From contig CBDFMQ010000002.1 in NCBI GenBank assembly GCA_965249725.1, positions 1,248,001 to 1,312,000 of the forward strand: DNA of 64,000 nucleotides, given 5' to 3'. The notes under the pieces are model-generated. The model did no database searches. It was not told the DNA's origin and saw only the letters and a program-made list of their open reading frames with translations. Made by a program: the position numbers and the translations under genes. This DNA comes from Longimicrobiales bacterium. GTDB taxonomy: Bacteria; Gemmatimonadota; Gemmatimonadetes; Longimicrobiales; Gaopeijiaceae. Below are positions 47,980-57,313 of the stretch, in pieces; the stretch's first letter is position 1, and each line of letters begins with the position of its first letter.

Positions 47980-48564
47980 TCAGGCTTCACTCCCCCACGG
48001 CCGGATGAAGTCCTCGGGATCGATCCCGAGACCATCTGCGATTCGCGTGATGTAGTTGAAGTACGCCACGACCTGCGTGGCGTCGTGAATCGCCACGTCG
48101 TCGAAGCCCAAGGATCTCAGTTGGTCGAGGTGTGCGGGCGTTACGCTGCCCTGCTGTCGGGTCAGCCGGATCGCATGGGCGCAGAGTGCTCGGTCGGCCT
48201 CCGAGAGCGCCGCGGTGGTCCAGTCCCGGGCCACGGCGTGCACGAAGGCATCGGCCTCCTCATCGGTCTCGAACATCGTCTGGACCTCTTCCCGGAGGTC
48301 GTGCGCGTGCGCTTGCGTTCAGTACCGACAGCCAAGTTCGGCCGAGACCACGGTTGCGAGCATCTCTCGTTGAACACGAGACAGCGGAGACGCCCCCATC
48401 ATGACTGCCCCGTAGAGCCGCATGCTGGCGTCCAGAGTGGGAGGGGTAGGACTCATGATCCGGATGATGTTCCACACACGTCCCGCCCGTTTCAGAGCCG
48501 CATCGTACTGCCTCTTGAGGATTCCGGTTGCCTCTGCAATCGGCGTGAGTCGGATCCAAGCCAT
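47980..48564 (-). CDS. AhpD/CMD-family peroxidase-like protein, probable selenoprotein (UGA=Sec at 48321-48319)
   Basis: ORFs 48319-48564 and 47980-48276 are in frame, separated by one TGA plus 14 sense codons: REMLATVVSAELGCRY-U-TQAHAHDL...YFNYITRIADGLG; 194 aa joined. Confidence 0.85.
48283..48300 (-). promoter_or_regulatory. Candidate bacterial SECIS hairpin
   Basis: GACCTC-CGGGAA-GAGGTC beginning 18 nt after the in-frame TGA; G-rich apical loop. Confidence 0.6.
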
Positions 48565-50416: not shown

Positions 50417-51933
50417 TCCTCGACCTCCTCGGTTGGATGCCAGTCGAGCACACCCTGGAGAATGCGCTCGGCGTGTTCGGGTACGCCGACCAACTCCACC
50501 TCGAATCCTCCCTGCTTCGCCTCGTCCATGACTTCCTTCAGCGCCAGGGCCCCGGTCAGATCGATGCGCCCGAGCCCACCGAGATGCAGGACCAGTCGAT
50601 CGGCCTCCCGGGCCTCGGAGAGGCGCTCCGAGGCTATCTGCTCGAGGTAGGCCGCCGATCCGAACCACAGCACTCCCTGAGGCTTCAGATGGACACCCCG
50701 TTCGTCGGTCCACGATTCCACGCCCGGCCTCAACTCCCGCCAAATATGGACCGCAACGCCCGCCAAGATCCCCAGCACGACGGCCTGCTCGATGTGCGGC
50801 GCGAGCGATAGGGTGAAGACAAGCGTTATCCACCCCACGCCCGCCTGAGCGCGAGAGATCCTCCAGAGCGAGGCCAGGAGTCCCAGACGGATGAGCGGAG
50901 CCACTGCCGCGATCACGATGGCTGCGAGAATCGCCCGCGGCAGCGGAGCGAGGATCTGGGCGAACGGCAGGAAGCTGAGTACCGCGATACCCGTGACGGC
51001 ACCGCTCCATCGGGTGCGGGCTCCCGACAGATAGTTGAGGCTGCTCCGCGAGAACGACCCACCTACGGGGAATCCTCCGAACAGGCCAGCCGCTACGTTG
51101 GCGGCTCCCTGGCTGATGAACTCGCGATCAGGACTCCAGGGCATCCGCTCCTTGGTAGCATAGACCCGCGAGATCGAAGCCGCCTCGGCGAAGCCAACCA
51201 GGGCGATCACGAAGCCGGGGAGGATCAGCACCGGCAGGCTCACCCACGGGAGGTCGATGTCCAGTGGCGGCAGACCTACTCGAATATCACCGACGGTCGG
51301 GCCTCCGTATCCAGTCGCGACCGAGAACGCGAGGCCCACCACAGTGGCTATGAGCACGCCGGGCATCAGCGGGTGAACGCGCCGTCCCCCGATGATCACC
51401 GCCACCGTGACGACACCGAGCACAAGGGACGCTGCCTCCCATGAGCCCGGATGTGCCAGGGTCCAGAGCGCTCCCTGAAGCACGCCGTCATTCGCGGCTG
51501 TGACCCCCGCCAGTCCGGGAAGCTGCGAACTGATGATCAGGATCGCTGCGCCGGAGGTGAAGCCGTCGAGCATGGGCCTGGACATCATGTACGAGATCCA
51601 ACCGGTCTTGAGGGCCCCCACCAAAACGCGTGCCGCACCCACGACCAGAGCCAATAGCGCCGCCAGCTTCACATACTCGATCGACCCTGGGACGGCCATC
51701 GGCACGAGCGCCCCCAACGTGAGAAGGGCAGTCAAGGCGACCGGGCCCGTCTGTAGGTAGGGGGAGGACGCGAAGCAGGCCGCCGCGATCGGCGCCACAG
51801 CCGCTGCGAAGAGCCCATGCTGGCTGGGGAGGCCCGCCAACTCGGCGTAGGCCATGGCCTGTGGGATCAGCACGAGAGCCACGCCGACGCCGGCCACGAA
51901 GTCCCTCGCAGACGGGCGTTGAGCTTCCGTCAT
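50413..51933 (-). CDS. SulP-family anion permease with STAS domain
   Basis: DFVAG...IPQAMAYAELAGLP, GPVA, GGSFSRS, C-terminal LWFG...IDLTG; ATG 51933 overlaps upstream stop. Confidence 0.93.
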   Translation of the reverse strand: MTEAQRPSARDFVAGVGVALVLIPQAMAYAELAGLPSQHGLFAAAVAPIAAACFASSPYLQTGPVALTALLTLGALVPMAVPGSIEYVKLAALLALVVGAARVLVGALKTGWISYMMSRPMLDGFTSGAAILIISSQLPGLAGVTAANDGVLQGALWTLAHPGSWEAASLVLGVVTVAVIIGGRRVHPLMPGVLIATVVGLAFSVATGYGGPTVGDIRVGLPPLDIDLPWVSLPVLILPGFVIALVGFAEAASISRVYATKERMPWSPDREFISQGAANVAAGLFGGFPVGGSFSRSSLNYLSGARTRWSGAVTGIAVLSFLPFAQILAPLPRAILAAIVIAAVAPLIRLGLLASLWRISRAQAGVGWITLVFTLSLAPHIEQAVVLGILAGVAVHIWRELRPGVESWTDERGVHLKPQGVLWFGSAAYLEQIASERLSEAREADRLVLHLGGLGRIDLTGALALKEVMDEAKQGGFEVELVGVPEHAERILQGVLDWHPTEEVEE

Positions 51934-52799
51934 GCCATCATCCCCACCAGGGCCTCCTCTGCGAGGGCGGCCAACAGATCGGCGGTGCCGTTCGCCCGAC
52001 CGACCCAGTGCTCGCGGATCGGGCCCAATCCCTCGAGGCGTGTCTCTTGCTCCACCGCCCGCAAGCGAGCTTCCCGGCCCAACCACGAGAGCACCCCGCC
52101 CGGGTCCTGCGAAATGAGTCCCTTGAGGACAAAGGCTCGCTCGCCGGAGCGTAGGCCCAGCTCCAGATCGTCGGCGCAGCGGGCGAGATCGCATCGAAGG
52201 AGGATGAGGCCACTCCGTACCGGAGGCAGAAGCGAGGCCAGGAAGGCCTCGGCCCCCTCCCTTCTCGGATCCGTGATGCCTTCGGCATCCACGAGATGTC
52301 GCGGCGTGACGTCCAGAGCGCCGAGGTCGGCGACCTCGGATCTCAACACGTCCTGGAGCAGCGTGGCCCAAGGACCGTAAAACGGTCCACCCACCTCTTC
52401 CACACGCCGCAGGAAGAGCGGCACCCAGGGCAGTAGGTGTTCCCAGAGCAGCGCCGCCCTGCTGTTCCGTAGAAGCCGGGCCGCCGCCGCGTCGCTTTCC
52501 AGACCCTCGGCCTCGGCGAGGCTCGCCGCCAATCCGAGAAGCCCACTCAGATGATCGGGCTCGTCGGGAGCGTCCTGCCCGAGGGCTCTCCAGAATCCGG
52601 CCACTCGGTCCCGGGCTTCCCCCCCGAGCATGCCCTCGTTCCCGAGGTAGACGGACGCGTATGGTTGGAGCTGCATCAGGAAGACGTCGGCGTACGTCTC
52701 CCCACCCGGCGGTGCGGACAGTTCGAGCAGGTCGGCGAGCTTCCCGTGTTCCTCGGCTGGGGGCTCTGCCAGGGCGGCTAGCGCCCGGAGCAACTCCAC
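51930..52799 (-). CDS. TorD/DmsD-family molybdoenzyme chaperone
   Basis: PYASVY, EPDHL, EHLLPW; start GTG 52799. Confidence 0.88.
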   Translation of the reverse strand: MELLRALAALAEPPAEEHGKLADLLELSAPPGGETYADVFLMQLQPYASVYLGNEGMLGGEARDRVAGFWRALGQDAPDEPDHLSGLLGLAASLAEAEGLESDAAAARLLRNSRAALLWEHLLPWVPLFLRRVEEVGGPFYGPWATLLQDVLRSEVADLGALDVTPRHLVDAEGITDPRREGAEAFLASLLPPVRSGLILLRCDLARCADDLELGLRSGERAFVLKGLISQDPGGVLSWLGREARLRAVEQETRLEGLGPIREHWVGRANGTADLLAALAEEALVGMMA

Positions 52800-52827
52800 G
52801 TGCGCTCCTCGGTAGGGGTCAGATCGA

Positions 52828-55743
52828 TCATGTCCCGTCGTCGGCCTCACGTCGATGCAACTGATACGCCTCCGGCTGAGGGCGCACAGGTCGGTCGAAC
52901 CACTCCGGCCGACGTGTACCATCCGGGCTGACCTGGTCGGCCGGGCGGGTCAGGTCGAGCCACTCTCTGAATATCTCACGAGACCTCGTGGTGTCGACCC
53001 GAATGTCTCCGGCGCTCTCTCCAGGGTCGGCCTTTTGGACCCGGACCGCCTGGTGCCAACAGTGCATCCCCGAAATCGGATCGGGATGGACCGGGAATGT
53101 GAGATTCTGATTCACACCGACGTCAGCCCACCAGATTCGGCCCGTATCTGGATCAGCCGAGTCGTACGCGCCTCCACCCGTAATCCGGCGCATGAACCAC
53201 TCGTTGCCCGACTGGTTCAACGACACGGCAGCCGACACCTGACGCTGCCCCTCGGGTTGAATCTTCCACCGCCCCATGTGGTGGCTGCACGCCACCACCC
53301 CCGGCTTGATGGCCTCAGTGACCCACGCCTTGAGCACGAAGTGCCCCAGGTCCGTCTCGACCCGCATGAGATCGCCGGTCGCAACTCCGTGAGGAGCCGC
53401 ATCGTTGGGGTGGATCCAGAGGGGGTTGGTGTGGGCGATCTCGTCGAGCCACTTCGAGTTGCCGCTCCTGGTGTGGATCTGCACGGGCACCCTGAAGGTG
53501 GGCAGAAGGACCATCTGATCGCTCGCCAAGTTCTGGCGGTGAATGTGGCTCTTGATGTACCCGGGAAGGGCCAACTCCGGCCAACCCCACGCCTCCAGGG
53601 TGGTCGAGAAGAACTCGAGACGCCCCGATGGCGTCGGGAAGCCGCGCCGCACGGAATCGTCCAGCATGATCCCGACGCATCGGCGCTCCTCATCGTCGTC
53701 TGAGGCCTTCGGCGCAGACACCGTATGAGGCGTCGAAGGCTTGTCAGCCCGGCTGAACACTCTGCCGAGCTCATCGGTACCGATCCCCTCCAACTCGGCT
53801 TCCGGCACCTCTTCCTCGTAGAGCGCCCCCACCTTCCGTCGCACCTCGAACGCTCCGTAACGCCGCATGTACTCCAGTGGGGTCAGGCCTTCCTTGGCCG
53901 CGGACTCGGGGAGACCCGGGACCGAGTGATCGAACATCCACCCGTAGTATTCGTCTACCGAAAGGGGCTTCCCCGGCTCCTTCTTCGACTCGAAGTACTG
54001 TCGTATCCCGAGCGTGCCATCGGGGTCGATGCGCCAGGAGAGCTCCATCCAGAACTCGTTCTCCTCCCACACTTCTCCCGGATTGGCCTCGCGGGTGTCG
54101 TCGACATTCTCACCCAGCCGCTCCCTGGCTACGCGGAGCACGGGCTGCCGGAAGCCCACCCACTGGCCGTCGTACTGCTCGTAAGAGTGAACGTCGTGTC
54201 GCTCTGAGCCGAGGCCCATGGGCAGAATGTAGTCCGCGTACTGGGCGGTCTCGTTCCACGTCGGTGTGAGAGCCACGTGCATGCCGACGAGTGCCTCGTC
54301 CGTGAGCGCCTCGATCCAGGAGAAGCCGTCGGGATTCGTCCAGACCGGGTTGTAAACACGAGTGAAGTACGTGTCGAGCTTGCCCCTGCCCTCCAGAAGT
54401 AAGTGCGGGAGCAGGATGGACATCTCGTGGTACGACAGCGGGTACTCGCGGGGCCACAACAGCTCGTTCCACTCGGGGGGACCCGGGGGATTGTAGATGG
54501 GCTTGGGCGTGAACTTGTTCCACGCTGCGGGATGCGTCCCGCCCTCGGTGGCTACGGAGCCGGTAAGCGCACAAAGCATGTAGAGCGTACGCGCCACCTG
54601 CCATCCCCCGAGGTTGCCCGACGCGGCGCTACGCCAAGTGTGGACGGCGAGGCGGGTTCCCGCCTTGGCAACCGTTTCCGCAACTCCCTTGAGGGAGTCG
54701 GGATCAACCCCGGATTCGGCTGACGCGTATTCGAACGTGTACTCTGCGTACAGTTCCTTCAGCACGTTCTCGAAGTGCTCGAAGGTGGCCTCCTCCGTTG
54801 GATGCCTGGCCTGGAGGTACTCTCGCCAATTCCACCAACGCCGCACGAAATCCCGGTTGTACAGGTCGTTCTGAATGAGGTAGTTGGCGATTGCCAGGTT
54901 GATCGCGGCCTCGGAGCCCGGATAGGGTGCGACGTAGTGGTCGGCATGAGTCGCCGTGTTCGAAAGACGGGTGTCGAAGACGATGACCTTCGCCCCACGC
55001 TGGCGTGCTTCGATGATCCGCTGGGCATGCGGATTGAAGTAATGCCCGGCTTCGAGATGGCTCGAGATGAGGAATATGACGTCGGCGTGTGCGAAGTCCG
55101 GGCTGGGGCGGTCCGACCCTACCCACAAGTTGAAGCCGACCCTGGCCCCGGACGAACAGATGTTCGTGTGGGAGTTGTGCCCGTCCACGCCCCACGCAGC
55201 CAACACCTTGTTGGCGAACCCGGCTTCGCCCGGACGTCCTACATGGTACATGACCTCGTTGGCGCGTCCCGACTGCAGCGCCGCACGGATACGCTCGGCG
55301 AGCACATCGAGCGCCTCATCCCAGCTCACGCGTTCCCATTTTCCTTCACCCCGTCGACCCGCACGTTTGAGAGGGTGGAGAATGCGGTCCGGATCCGTGA
55401 CTTGGTTGAGCGTAGCCGGGCCCTTGCCGCAGTTGCGGCCCCTGGAGCCCGGATGCTCCGGATTCCCCTCGAATTTCCGTACTTCCAGGGTGTCCCGATC
55501 GACGTACGCAAGGAGGCCACACGCCGATTCGCAGTTGAAGCAGGTGGTGGGCACGAGCATGTATCGGCGCTCCACCCGGGCGGGCCAGGCGGACGAGTCC
55601 AGCTCCACCCAGTCGTTCCACCGCTCCTTGGGTGGGAAGGCGGAAAGGTGGACCCGGCTGGGACCCGGATAGAAGGTCTCACCACGCGCCTCAACCTCGG
55701 CCCGGGCCGCGGACACACGTTTGTTAAGTTTGTTTAAGTCCAT
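52828..55743 (-). CDS. Molybdopterin (bis-PGD) oxidoreductase catalytic subunit, no Tat signal
   Basis: TCFNCESACG...RNCGKG FS0 motif, RILHPLKR, SHTNICSS, TAQYADYILP, GFPTPSGRLEF, WIHPNDA. Confidence 0.92.
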   Translation of the reverse strand: MDLNKLNKRVSAARAEVEARGETFYPGPSRVHLSAFPPKERWNDWVELDSSAWPARVERRYMLVPTTCFNCESACGLLAYVDRDTLEVRKFEGNPEHPGSRGRNCGKGPATLNQVTDPDRILHPLKRAGRRGEGKWERVSWDEALDVLAERIRAALQSGRANEVMYHVGRPGEAGFANKVLAAWGVDGHNSHTNICSSGARVGFNLWVGSDRPSPDFAHADVIFLISSHLEAGHYFNPHAQRIIEARQRGAKVIVFDTRLSNTATHADHYVAPYPGSEAAINLAIANYLIQNDLYNRDFVRRWWNWREYLQARHPTEEATFEHFENVLKELYAEYTFEYASAESGVDPDSLKGVAETVAKAGTRLAVHTWRSAASGNLGGWQVARTLYMLCALTGSVATEGGTHPAAWNKFTPKPIYNPPGPPEWNELLWPREYPLSYHEMSILLPHLLLEGRGKLDTYFTRVYNPVWTNPDGFSWIEALTDEALVGMHVALTPTWNETAQYADYILPMGLGSERHDVHSYEQYDGQWVGFRQPVLRVARERLGENVDDTREANPGEVWEENEFWMELSWRIDPDGTLGIRQYFESKKEPGKPLSVDEYYGWMFDHSVPGLPESAAKEGLTPLEYMRRYGAFEVRRKVGALYEEEVPEAELEGIGTDELGRVFSRADKPSTPHTVSAPKASDDDEERRCVGIMLDDSVRRGFPTPSGRLEFFSTTLEAWGWPELALPGYIKSHIHRQNLASDQMVLLPTFRVPVQIHTRSGNSKWLDEIAHTNPLWIHPNDAAPHGVATGDLMRVETDLGHFVLKAWVTEAIKPGVVACSHHMGRWKIQPEGQRQVSAAVSLNQSGNEWFMRRITGGGAYDSADPDTGRIWWADVGVNQNLTFPVHPDPISGMHCWHQAVRVQKADPGESAGDIRVDTTRSREIFREWLDLTRPADQVSPDGTRRPEWFDRPVRPQPEAYQLHRREADDGT

Positions 55744-55748
55744 CTATC

Positions 55749-55773
55749 TAATTGCTTACACATCAATGGGTTA
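55749..55773. promoter_or_regulatory. 25-bp symmetric IHF-like motif between NrfD-fusion and Mo-subunit genes
   Basis: TAATTGCTTACACATCAATGGGTTA; right half CATCAA-N4-TTA is one mismatch from WATCAANNNNTTR. Confidence 0.5.
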
Positions 55774-55774
55774 G

Positions 55775-57313
55775 TCATGCTAATGGAACGGCCTGACCGG
55801 CCTGCACGTAGGCGTGCTCGTAGGCCGCCAGACCCAGGAGACCGAGAACCACTACGCCCCCGCCAATCCATGGTGCGAACAACCCGGCCAAGGACAGGAT
55901 GGTCCCCGCCCAGAACCATCGGCTGAACCGTCCGCGGGTCATCTCCACGACCGCCAACCGCGCGTGGGCACTGACATGGGGGAGCGTGACTTCGCCCAAG
56001 ATCATGAGAAGGTGCACGGCCGCAGCGCCCGCAAAACACACACGGAGTACGTTGGCTGCGGCCCCATCCCAAATCGGGGCCAACAAGGACAAGACTCCTG
56101 CCCCCGCCATCACGCACTGGACCAGGAGATGCGGTGGCAGGAGAGGGTTCTGCCACAGGTCGCGAGCCTTGGCCTGAGCGAACAGGTAAGCCGTGTAGAT
56201 GGCGGTCATGGCCGCGAGAGGCCCTCCTGCCCAGGCAAGGCGTCCCGTCAGGCCTATACGGCCGGTAATCTCGGCACCAAGGTGGAGGACGAGCACCGCC
56301 CCGTAGCCGCTGATGATGACACCGCCCCGGACCAGCCAACTTCGCCACTGCGGGCGGGTGAAGATCATGTAGAACCGCTCGGGATGCTCGAGATCCCAAA
56401 TGAGCAGCACCCCCGTCACCGCCAGGAAGGCCAGCCCCACCACCGGGGCGCCGAACGTCCACAGCGAGCTGGTCCCGGAGAGCACCCCGGCCAGAATGAG
56501 CAGCAACGGCACGAGGTATGCACCCGCGGCGACCGACTTGGTCCACGTATAGAAGCTCACCCGCCAATCCCAGGGAGCCCTGTGCAGTACATCGTAGGAC
56601 AGAACGGCCGCGGCCGAGCTGTTCCAGGGGCCCGGGTGCCCCGAGGGGACCTGGTGCGGGACGTTTCCCTGTTCACTCCACATGAACAAGCCGCCATCGG
56701 GCCTTCGGGCGGCCAGGGGATCGAGGGTGACCTGATCCGCACCCTTGTAGTAGAGCTTCGGCAGGGTCTCCTTCTCGGGACGCCGCACCGTGACGGCGTC
56801 TCGATTCACGATCTGGTTGACCGCCGAGGTCGGGTCGGTGAGATCGCCCACCAGCAGCGCCTGTGTGGGGCAGACCACCACGCAGGCGGGCTCCAGGCCC
56901 ATGTCGATGCGGTGAGCGCAGAAGTTGCACTTCTCCGCCGAATGGTCCACGGGGTTGATGAAGATGGCGTCGTACGGGCAGGCAGCCATGCACGCCTTGC
57001 AGCCGATGCATATCGACTTGTCGAAGTCGACGATGCCGTCCGGACGCGCGTGCATGGCCGAAGTCGGACAGGCCGTCACGCAGGGCGCGTTGGCGCACTG
57101 GTTGCACCGAGTGACCTGAAAGGAGCGCCGGGTCTGGGGATACTGCCCCACGTCGACGTACTTCACATAAGTGCGGGTCACGGACAGCGGGACTTCGTTC
57201 TCCGACTTGCACGCCGTGGTGCAGGCGTGACAACCGATGCAGCGGGTGTGATCCACGACTTTCGCCCATTGGGGCGCGTCGGTCTTGGGGGCCGACAGCG
57301 TGTGGGTCTCCAT
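55775..57313 (-). CDS. Four-cluster FeS protein (DmsB/NrfC type) fused to NrfD/PsrC membrane anchor
   Basis: CIGCHACTTAC, CNQCANAPCVTACP, CIGCKACMAACP, CNFC...PACVVVCP; then multi-TM with DLEHPERF, SWLVRG, QAGQ. Confidence 0.93.
   Translation of the reverse strand: METHTLSAPKTDAPQWAKVVDHTRCIGCHACTTACKSENEVPLSVTRTYVKYVDVGQYPQTRRSFQVTRCNQCANAPCVTACPTSAMHARPDGIVDFDKSICIGCKACMAACPYDAIFINPVDHSAEKCNFCAHRIDMGLEPACVVVCPTQALLVGDLTDPTSAVNQIVNRDAVTVRRPEKETLPKLYYKGADQVTLDPLAARRPDGGLFMWSEQGNVPHQVPSGHPGPWNSSAAAVLSYDVLHRAPWDWRVSFYTWTKSVAAGAYLVPLLLILAGVLSGTSSLWTFGAPVVGLAFLAVTGVLLIWDLEHPERFYMIFTRPQWRSWLVRGGVIISGYGAVLVLHLGAEITGRIGLTGRLAWAGGPLAAMTAIYTAYLFAQAKARDLWQNPLLPPHLLVQCVMAGAGVLSLLAPIWDGAAANVLRVCFAGAAAVHLLMILGEVTLPHVSAHARLAVVEMTRGRFSRWFWAGTILSLAGLFAPWIGGGVVVLGLLGLAAYEHAYVQAGQAVPLA

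Follow-up and report, generated by a model that had tools for sequence, protein, structure and literature searches.

A TGA-interrupted AhpD-like gene of a Longimicrobiales bacterium is predicted to encode a single selenoprotein

Introduction

Two half-ORFs that lie in one frame and are separated by a single TGA codon raise the question whether this TGA is a true stop, a damaged Cys codon or a codon for selenocysteine (Sec) and, if it is read as Sec, what kind of enzyme is encoded. The locus is located on the minus strand of a stretch of 64,000 nucleotides from a Longimicrobiales bacterium (contig CBDFMQ010000002.1, positions 1,248,001 to 1,312,000), which is referred to here as the window. An initial annotation of this DNA proposed a hidden AhpD/CMD selenoprotein followed by a SECIS-like hairpin.

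AhpD-like selenoproteins were described from the Sargasso Sea as 27 sequences with SECIS elements in COG2128 (Zhang, Fomenko and Gladyshev, 2005; PMC1088965), the COG to which DR1765 has also been assigned (PMC6300522). In GOS, 'AhpD-like 1' is represented by 299 sequences and ranks fourth in abundance in the table given (PMC2398784). The family is catalogued in Table 1 of PMC13188914 under TIGR01926, with a CxxU motif and one Sec, as 'predicted with high confidence', so that the initial annotation was right in treating it as a reported class, and BSepDB has an AhpD-like family page (PMC13326102). This makes it one of the most abundant selenoprotein families of the sea, but its listed status is still that of a prediction, and no biochemical study of it was among the papers listed in a literature search.

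Results

Translation of the minus-strand frame between 48564 and 47980 gave the arrangement that had been noted initially, i.e., two half-ORFs in one frame with a single TGA in the context C-R-Y-TGA-T-Q-A-H. The frame starts with an ATG at 48564, contains a lone in-frame TGA at 48321-48319 and is then open to the terminal TGA at 47982-47980, which amounts to 194 codons with the internal TGA counted in. The motif around codon 82 is E67-x11-C79-R-Y-U82-T-Q-A-H86. The features of the locus are as follows, where A2 is an alignment of 104 sequences consisting of the window protein and 103 of the 119 available loci.

47980..48564, minus strand: AhpD-like (TIGR01926) gene of 194 codons plus the final TGA stop, predicted selenoprotein
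48364..48366, minus strand: Glu67, proton-relay Glu equivalent to Glu36 of PA0269, invariant in A2, spacing as in PMC3141380
48328..48330, minus strand: Cys79, first residue of CxxU, likely resolving Cys
48319..48321, minus strand: in-frame TGA, codon 82, predicted Sec at the second Cys position of CxxC
48307..48309, minus strand: His86, proton-relay His equivalent to His55 of PA0269, invariant in A2
48283..48300, minus strand: bSECIS-like hairpin GACCTC-CGGGAA-GAGGTC with a 6-bp stem and a 6-nt loop opening C-G-G, encoding D-L-R-E-E-V
48274..48276, minus strand: internal ATG, gene-caller start of a spurious 98-aa ORF

The expectation that automatic annotation would split this gene was correct: standard ORF calling gives two pieces of 81 aa and 98 aa, and each half is present in the protein databases as its own entry, recorded on six contigs. 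A joined protein with Cys at position 82 was absent from the protein collection searched. A scan for promoters and terminators gave no signal above shuffles.

The read-through product of 194 aa matches the Pfam CMD family and scores above the cut-off of TIGR01926 (113.4 bits against 81.8, residues 3-184), and all 104 members of A2 match TIGR01926 at an E value of 0.001 or better. Two related families were considered and ruled out. AhpD proper (TIGR00777) scores 25.9 bits against a cut-off of 191.95, and there is no adjacent peroxiredoxin gene. The NF041238 family (AhpD_rel_CFYUT) shares the CxxU motif, which reads C-F-Y-U-T in many relatives, and is matched over model positions 151-337, but the score of 65.1 bits is below the cut-off of 175 and the protein has 194 aa against 357 model positions. 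In A2, E67, residue 82 and H86 are invariant and C79 and Y81 are nearly so; every one of the 75 Sec-form loci has the Glu, Cys, Tyr and His. The two-helix motif with a relay of Glu, Cys, Tyr/His, Cys and His is recognizable as E67, C79, Y81, U82 and H86 on helices 63-76 and 80-93. An AlphaFold2 model based on A2, with Cys placed at position 82, is all-helical with a pLDDT of 97.3, and its unbroken helix 80-93 spans the position of the TGA. The top structural match is DR1765 (6k40; TM 0.85, rmsd 1.9 Å, 32% identity), followed by 2pfx, 3c1l, 2oyo and 2prr. In phmmer alignments the TGA aligns with the second Cys of 6k40 and of 2oyo, and a Cys codon (TGC or TGT) occupies position 82 in 12 of 12 non-TGA homologues examined. 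The TGA therefore takes the place of the second Cys of CxxCxxxH, as had been proposed, and alignment to homologues revealed at this position only the two states anticipated, Sec (TGA) or Cys (TGC/TGT).

In a GTDB scan, codon 82 is TGA in 76 and TGC in 4 of the best 80 of 444 confirmed loci. The record titles of these best 80 loci name Gemmatimonadota, Chloroflexota, Planctomycetota, Acidobacteriota, Actinomycetota and Latescibacterota; the proteins of the TGA loci among them are 48-88% identical to the window protein, and the closest named loci are Longimicrobiales MAGs with 86-87% identity. A match was obtained in 35 of the 61 genomes searched. Among the 60 relatives, 22 have TGA at column 82, 8 have a Cys codon only, 4 give weak matches (G011, G030, G045 and G049, E above 1e-4, left out of the Sec/Cys tally) and 26 give no match. 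Of the 22 TGA-form relatives, 21 gave selA or selB, as did one of the eight Cys-form relatives, counts that overstate the association because the genomes are kin. The exceptions are G009 (78% complete), which carries TGA forms, yet selA/selB were not found in it, and G031, in which selA and selB are present together with a Cys form only; in the other seven Cys-form relatives (78-97% complete) both selA and selB are absent. The initial annotation would have been contradicted by a TGA unique to this genome or by complete relatives devoid of sel machinery; the TGA, however, recurs in 76 of the 80 loci, and the host has the whole Sec machinery. L098, one of the 76 TGA loci, and L018 (G001:C11:399358-399940) are put out of frame by one extra base about 15 nt past the TGA, probably through an assembly indel; both were left out of the later codon counts and of the trees, and the tree also omits L051 and L052. 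Two Sec homologues (L027 and L035) have long acidic or Gly/Ala-rich in-frame insertions past the SECIS-coded helix.

The perfect 6-bp hairpin noted initially is indeed found at 48300-48283, beginning 18 nt past the TGA; its loop lies 24 nt past the codon and its energy is -8.0 kcal/mol. The published bSECIS model specifies a loop of 3-9 nt that starts with G followed by G or U, a stem of 4-16 bp, a spacing of 16-37 nt and an energy of at most -7.5 kcal/mol (PMC13188914). Evaluated with our own script rather than with bSECISearch, the hairpin has a loop of 6 nt, a stem of 6 bp, a spacing of 24 and an energy of -8.0 kcal/mol, all within these limits. When the single sequence was folded, the hairpin was not clearly beyond chance (z-scores of +0.47 to -1.23), and in the longest folding window (82 nt) the minimum-energy fold differs from the hairpin. 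As a chance background, a loose bSECIS filter lets through 84 (4.7%) and a strict 6-bp filter 22 (1.2%) of the 1770 TGA-ended six-frame ORFs of at least 300 aa in this genome. No Rfam RNA family matched the gene or its paralogue.

It is the comparison across species, not the single-sequence fold, which shows that the hairpin is more than chance. When the gene and 75 TGA loci were aligned without gaps, the RNAalifold consensus consisted of exactly these six pairs. Pairing is retained in 98.4% of 450 cells across 75 distinct sequences, and 13 cells show compensatory two-sided changes, with C-G replaced by U-A in eight and in five sequences. None of 500 shuffles matched the pairing and compensatory values, and slid controls pair at 25-51%; two further covariation measures were not above shuffles (two-sided-change pairs 117/500, extra pair types 440/500). 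The Arg codon of the loop is CGG in 46 and CGT in 29 sequences, i.e., 75 of 75 against a background of 38%, and never CGC, the codon that these genes use most often for Arg (46%); two further invariant Arg positions have CGG or CGT in only 34 and 38 of 75 sequences. This pattern corresponds to the G[G/U] loop start of the published model (PMC13188914). Likewise, the Leu of the hairpin is encoded by CTC in 70 of 70 sequences (background 35%), and the five sequences with Phe (TTC) instead of Leu all carry GAG to GAA. Because the choice of Arg and Leu codons is constrained in this way, conservation of the protein is insufficient to explain the hairpin pattern. The energy limit of -7.5 kcal/mol is reached by 64 of the 75 Sec loci, and 11 fall short. 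Thus both the TGA and the hairpin are kept in relatives, and the proposed SECIS identity of the hairpin is supported by the published model, the conservation and the covariation.

The host genome (4.16 Mb, 95.8% complete, 3.9% contamination) contains selA, selB and selD at 560, 325 and 375 bits, all above cut-off, and a tRNA-Sec with anticodon TCA that was found by both ARAGORN and Rfam RF01852 (68 bits against 47). The presence of all four genes agrees with the selenium use that had been predicted, and confirms that the host uses Sec, with a number of redox selenoproteins. The selA, selB, selC and selD genes are scattered far apart and form no single operon, and selD carries one in-frame TGA of its own. 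The Rfam alignment of the tRNA-Sec (G000:C3:1047033-1047129, minus strand; L133:338-430) lacks one base in the 5' acceptor strand, and the tRNA is possibly of the short-acceptor type described in PMC5330540, where such tRNAs occur together with Sec machinery.

The same genome has a second TGA-containing AhpD-like paralogue (G000:C3:1201610-1202134, minus strand; L037) that reads C-F-Y-TGA-I-N-H-H and has its own hairpin, with the loop 16 nt past the UGA. This paralogue is immediately followed by a gene for an aromatic amino acid lyase, likely hutH, a link common to 12-13 loci of relatives. In the paralogue group and its close allies, all pairs of this hairpin are present in 20 of 21 TGA copies, whereas the sole Cys orthologue, L022, has a broken hairpin with four of six pairs. 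Further likely selenoproteins are a peroxiredoxin-like protein with a Pfam AhpC-TSA match at G000:C3:2223709 (plus strand; H-W-U-P-W-C) and a protein at G000:C3:141249 (plus strand; F-V-U-P-W-C) that was classed as DsbA-like by visual judgement alone; behind each of the two lies a hairpin whose loop opens with CGG. Another AhpC-TSA match (G000:C1:708966-709358, plus strand) has an in-frame TGA at a peroxiredoxin-like TxxU position, A-R-T-R-G-TGA-T-I-Q-M, and is followed by a stem-loop. A genome-wide scan for CxxU/UxxC with a loose hairpin gave 127 of 1539 candidates, most of them off-frame noise, so that selenoproteins were not counted from it.

A quick tree of 119 rows, midpoint-rooted and with long branches, requires at least three changes for its 12 Cys forms, and a single Cys clade is rejected in an AU test on 46 of the 119 rows (p 4e-8). 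The four TGC loci (L092, L097, L101 and L104) read T-R-Y-C, i.e., Cys79 is replaced by Thr and Cys is kept at position 82. This TxxC group is nested together with four Sec sisters (L117, L125, L128 and L129) in a clade with 99% support, which itself sits in a 96% clade of 81 rows, 77 of them Sec. In the TxxC genes, relics of the SECIS element are retained with 5-6 of 6 pairs left; selA and selB were not found in the genomes of the four TGC loci (completeness not stated), whereas a Sec sister has both. These relics and the result for selA/selB fit reversion, and repeated Sec-to-Cys reversions are likely from the tree, whose midpoint rooting and long branches leave their direction short of proof. 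Sec-to-Cys changes have been reported in only four families, and none is tabulated for AhpD-like proteins in PMC1794560 (Zhang et al., 2006).

These eight loci form one clade in which the gene lies behind a lipoyl E2 acyltransferase gene, with a gap of 1-5 nt in seven and of about 1 kb in one. No other locus searched gave an E2 match. The host itself has two E2 genes, neither of which adjoins 48564-47980, and 11 peroxiredoxin-like matches, none of them adjacent to the gene.

Discussion

The TGA at codon 82 is very likely decoded as Sec, judging from its conservation and that of the hairpin, giving one protein of 194 residues that gene callers cut in two. The gene is real and intact and very probably encodes Sec, and belongs to a family whose members are predicted rather than experimentally verified. 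A broken Cys codon, due to a nonsense mutation, pseudogene formation or sequencing error, is hardly credible. Assembly-type errors do occur nearby in relatives, as in G001 (L018, with the same pattern in L098), where a one-base frameshift follows just past the TGA. The TGA of the window, however, is kept in 76 of the best 80 of 444 loci across six phyla at 48-88% identity, the frame downstream is open for at least 99 codons in 75 of 75 Sec-form loci, synonymous codons within the hairpin are constrained and each half is recorded on six contigs; this conservation effectively refutes an accident. Nor can much credit be given to two real genes whose 81-aa and 98-aa products would assemble the AhpD fold around a true stop, even though both halves are held as proteins in the databases and a GAGG lies just 5' of the internal ATG at 48276. 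In that case neither protein would contain residue 82 or His86, a Met at the offset of the 98-aa ORF start is found in only 5 of 75 Sec-form homologues, 56 of 75 lack any Met in the 30 codons past the TGA, the frame is always kept, and the Cys homologues are single chains. Reading of the TGA as another residue is very improbable too, whether as Trp or Gly through an altered genetic code or as Cys through an unusual tRNA. Cys at position 82 would also yield a working CxxC and the alignment of the host tRNA-Sec has a gap of one base in its acceptor stem, but short-acceptor tRNA-Sec have been described alongside Sec machinery (PMC5330540). Moreover, TGA regularly serves as a stop here: it closes 1770 long ORFs of the genome, the gene itself and 40 of 75 homologues. 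The non-TGA homologues carry Cys only, and the TGA forms track selA/selB.

With Sec at position 82, the question becomes what the protein acts on. It is in all likelihood a selenol/thiol redox enzyme, and the label 'peroxidase' would follow from the homologues PA0269 and DR1765. A selenoprotein with a non-peroxide substrate, either a reductive dehalogenase like Bmp8 or a detoxifier of hypohalous acid or thiol adducts working with HAD-like and DinB neighbours, is improbable. The CMD-fold debrominase Bmp8 is a fold match (TM 0.74, 17% identity), the peroxidase activity of PA0269 is weak (PMC3141380), and the genes upstream encode a DinB_2 protein and a haloacid dehalogenase that scores above the TIGR01428 cut-off. 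Bmp8 is, however, far more distant than DR1765 (profile E 3e-7 against 2e-49), and with a structural identity of 17-19% a close relationship to Bmp8-like dehalogenases was rejected. The HAD neighbour recurs in only eight loci and DinB in six, all from the closest relatives; among 12 Sec-form genomes searched, a TIGR01428 match occurs in nine and is adjacent in only three; and neighbourhood clustering found no neighbour common across phyla. The physiological substrate, by analogy with characterized homologues, is reasonably likely to be a peroxide or a peroxiredoxin.

In the mechanism that we propose, SelB would bind the hairpin and deliver Sec-tRNA to the UGA at codon 82; SelB/SECIS delivery is the general mechanism (PMC13188914). 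A relay of Glu67 and His86, with Tyr81, would hold Sec82 in the deprotonated state. A hydroperoxide or the disulfide of an oxidized peroxiredoxin would then be attacked by Sec82, and Cys79 would resolve Sec82 to form a selenenylsulfide. This would be re-reduced by a dithiol, most likely that of a lipoylated E2 subunit which receives electrons from NADH through dihydrolipoamide dehydrogenase. The lipoyl donor is favoured because of the E2 gene linkage in eight loci, and as electron donor of this protein it is plausible but somewhat doubtful. In PA0269, a weak H2O2 reductase, the relay consists of E36, C48, Y50, C51 and H55 (PMC3141380); a DR1765 mutant is H2O2-sensitive and the CxxC is required, and AhpD is reduced at the expense of NADH by proteins that contain lipoamide (both reviewed in PMC8945050).

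Residue 82 is favoured as the nucleophile because the four TGC loci lost Cys79 and kept position 82. In AhpD of Mycobacterium tuberculosis, the second Cys (Cys133) is exposed and cross-links to AhpC. In the work of Koshkin (2003), Cys133 is reportedly also the residue that attacks the peroxide. In AhpD of B. thailandensis the first Cys mattered more (PMC6626918), and sestrin is reported to retain only the first Cys (PMC4674687). The attacking Cys thus differs among homologues, so that the M. tuberculosis case is not to be generalized. The overall account, SECIS-guided Sec recoding of an AhpD-like selenol/thiol oxidoreductase that acts in peroxide defence, is highly probable. A more specific scenario, in which the Sec clade represents lipoyl-fed selenol peroxidases wired to 2-oxoacid dehydrogenase complexes, with residue 82 alone essential and with Sec-to-Cys reversion in four genomes of one actinobacterial-type branch, is tentative and rather unlikely to hold in full.

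Compared with known systems, the protein shares with the AhpD-like selenoprotein family a TIGR01926 score above cut-off, CxxU, one Sec, a downstream bSECIS with G in the loop and widespread Cys homologues. There is no defining difference; the host has two Sec paralogues with differently placed hairpins. With DR1765 (6k40), PA0269 and other CxYC AhpD-like proteins it has in common the fold and the relay spacing E-x11-C-x-Y-C-x3-H, and differs from DR1765 and PA0269 in having Sec for the second Cys, in an identity of about 32% and in an activity that is predicted. AhpD of M. tuberculosis (TIGR00777), the model for a lipoyl-E2-fed role, has the same two-helix catalytic hairpin and relay, whereas the window protein has Tyr for His132, a TM of 0.44 and no adjacent ahpC. 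As the selenoprotein family has been catalogued since 2005, the Sec reading is ordinary, not novel, and no new kind of system is revealed. The name Longimicrobiales (Gemmatimonadota) does not occur in the main text of PMC13188914 or PMC13326102; the BSepDB database or tables may already list the gene or clade. What is corrected is the annotation, in that two short deposited proteins are one gene. The member described here is small, soluble and well modelled, its SECIS covaries cleanly, and both Cys and TxxC variants occur naturally, which makes it a convenient test case for the family.

Downstream of the gene are genes for a likely secreted protein without family match and for a uracil-DNA glycosylase; like the upstream neighbours, they recur in close relatives only. 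Further ORFs, none of them broken by a TGA, occupy 51930-57313 (minus strand) of the window. Judged by eye, they comprise a 4Fe-4S/NrfD-like fusion, a molybdopterin oxidoreductase of large size and a chaperone resembling TorD; a SulP-like transporter comes next.
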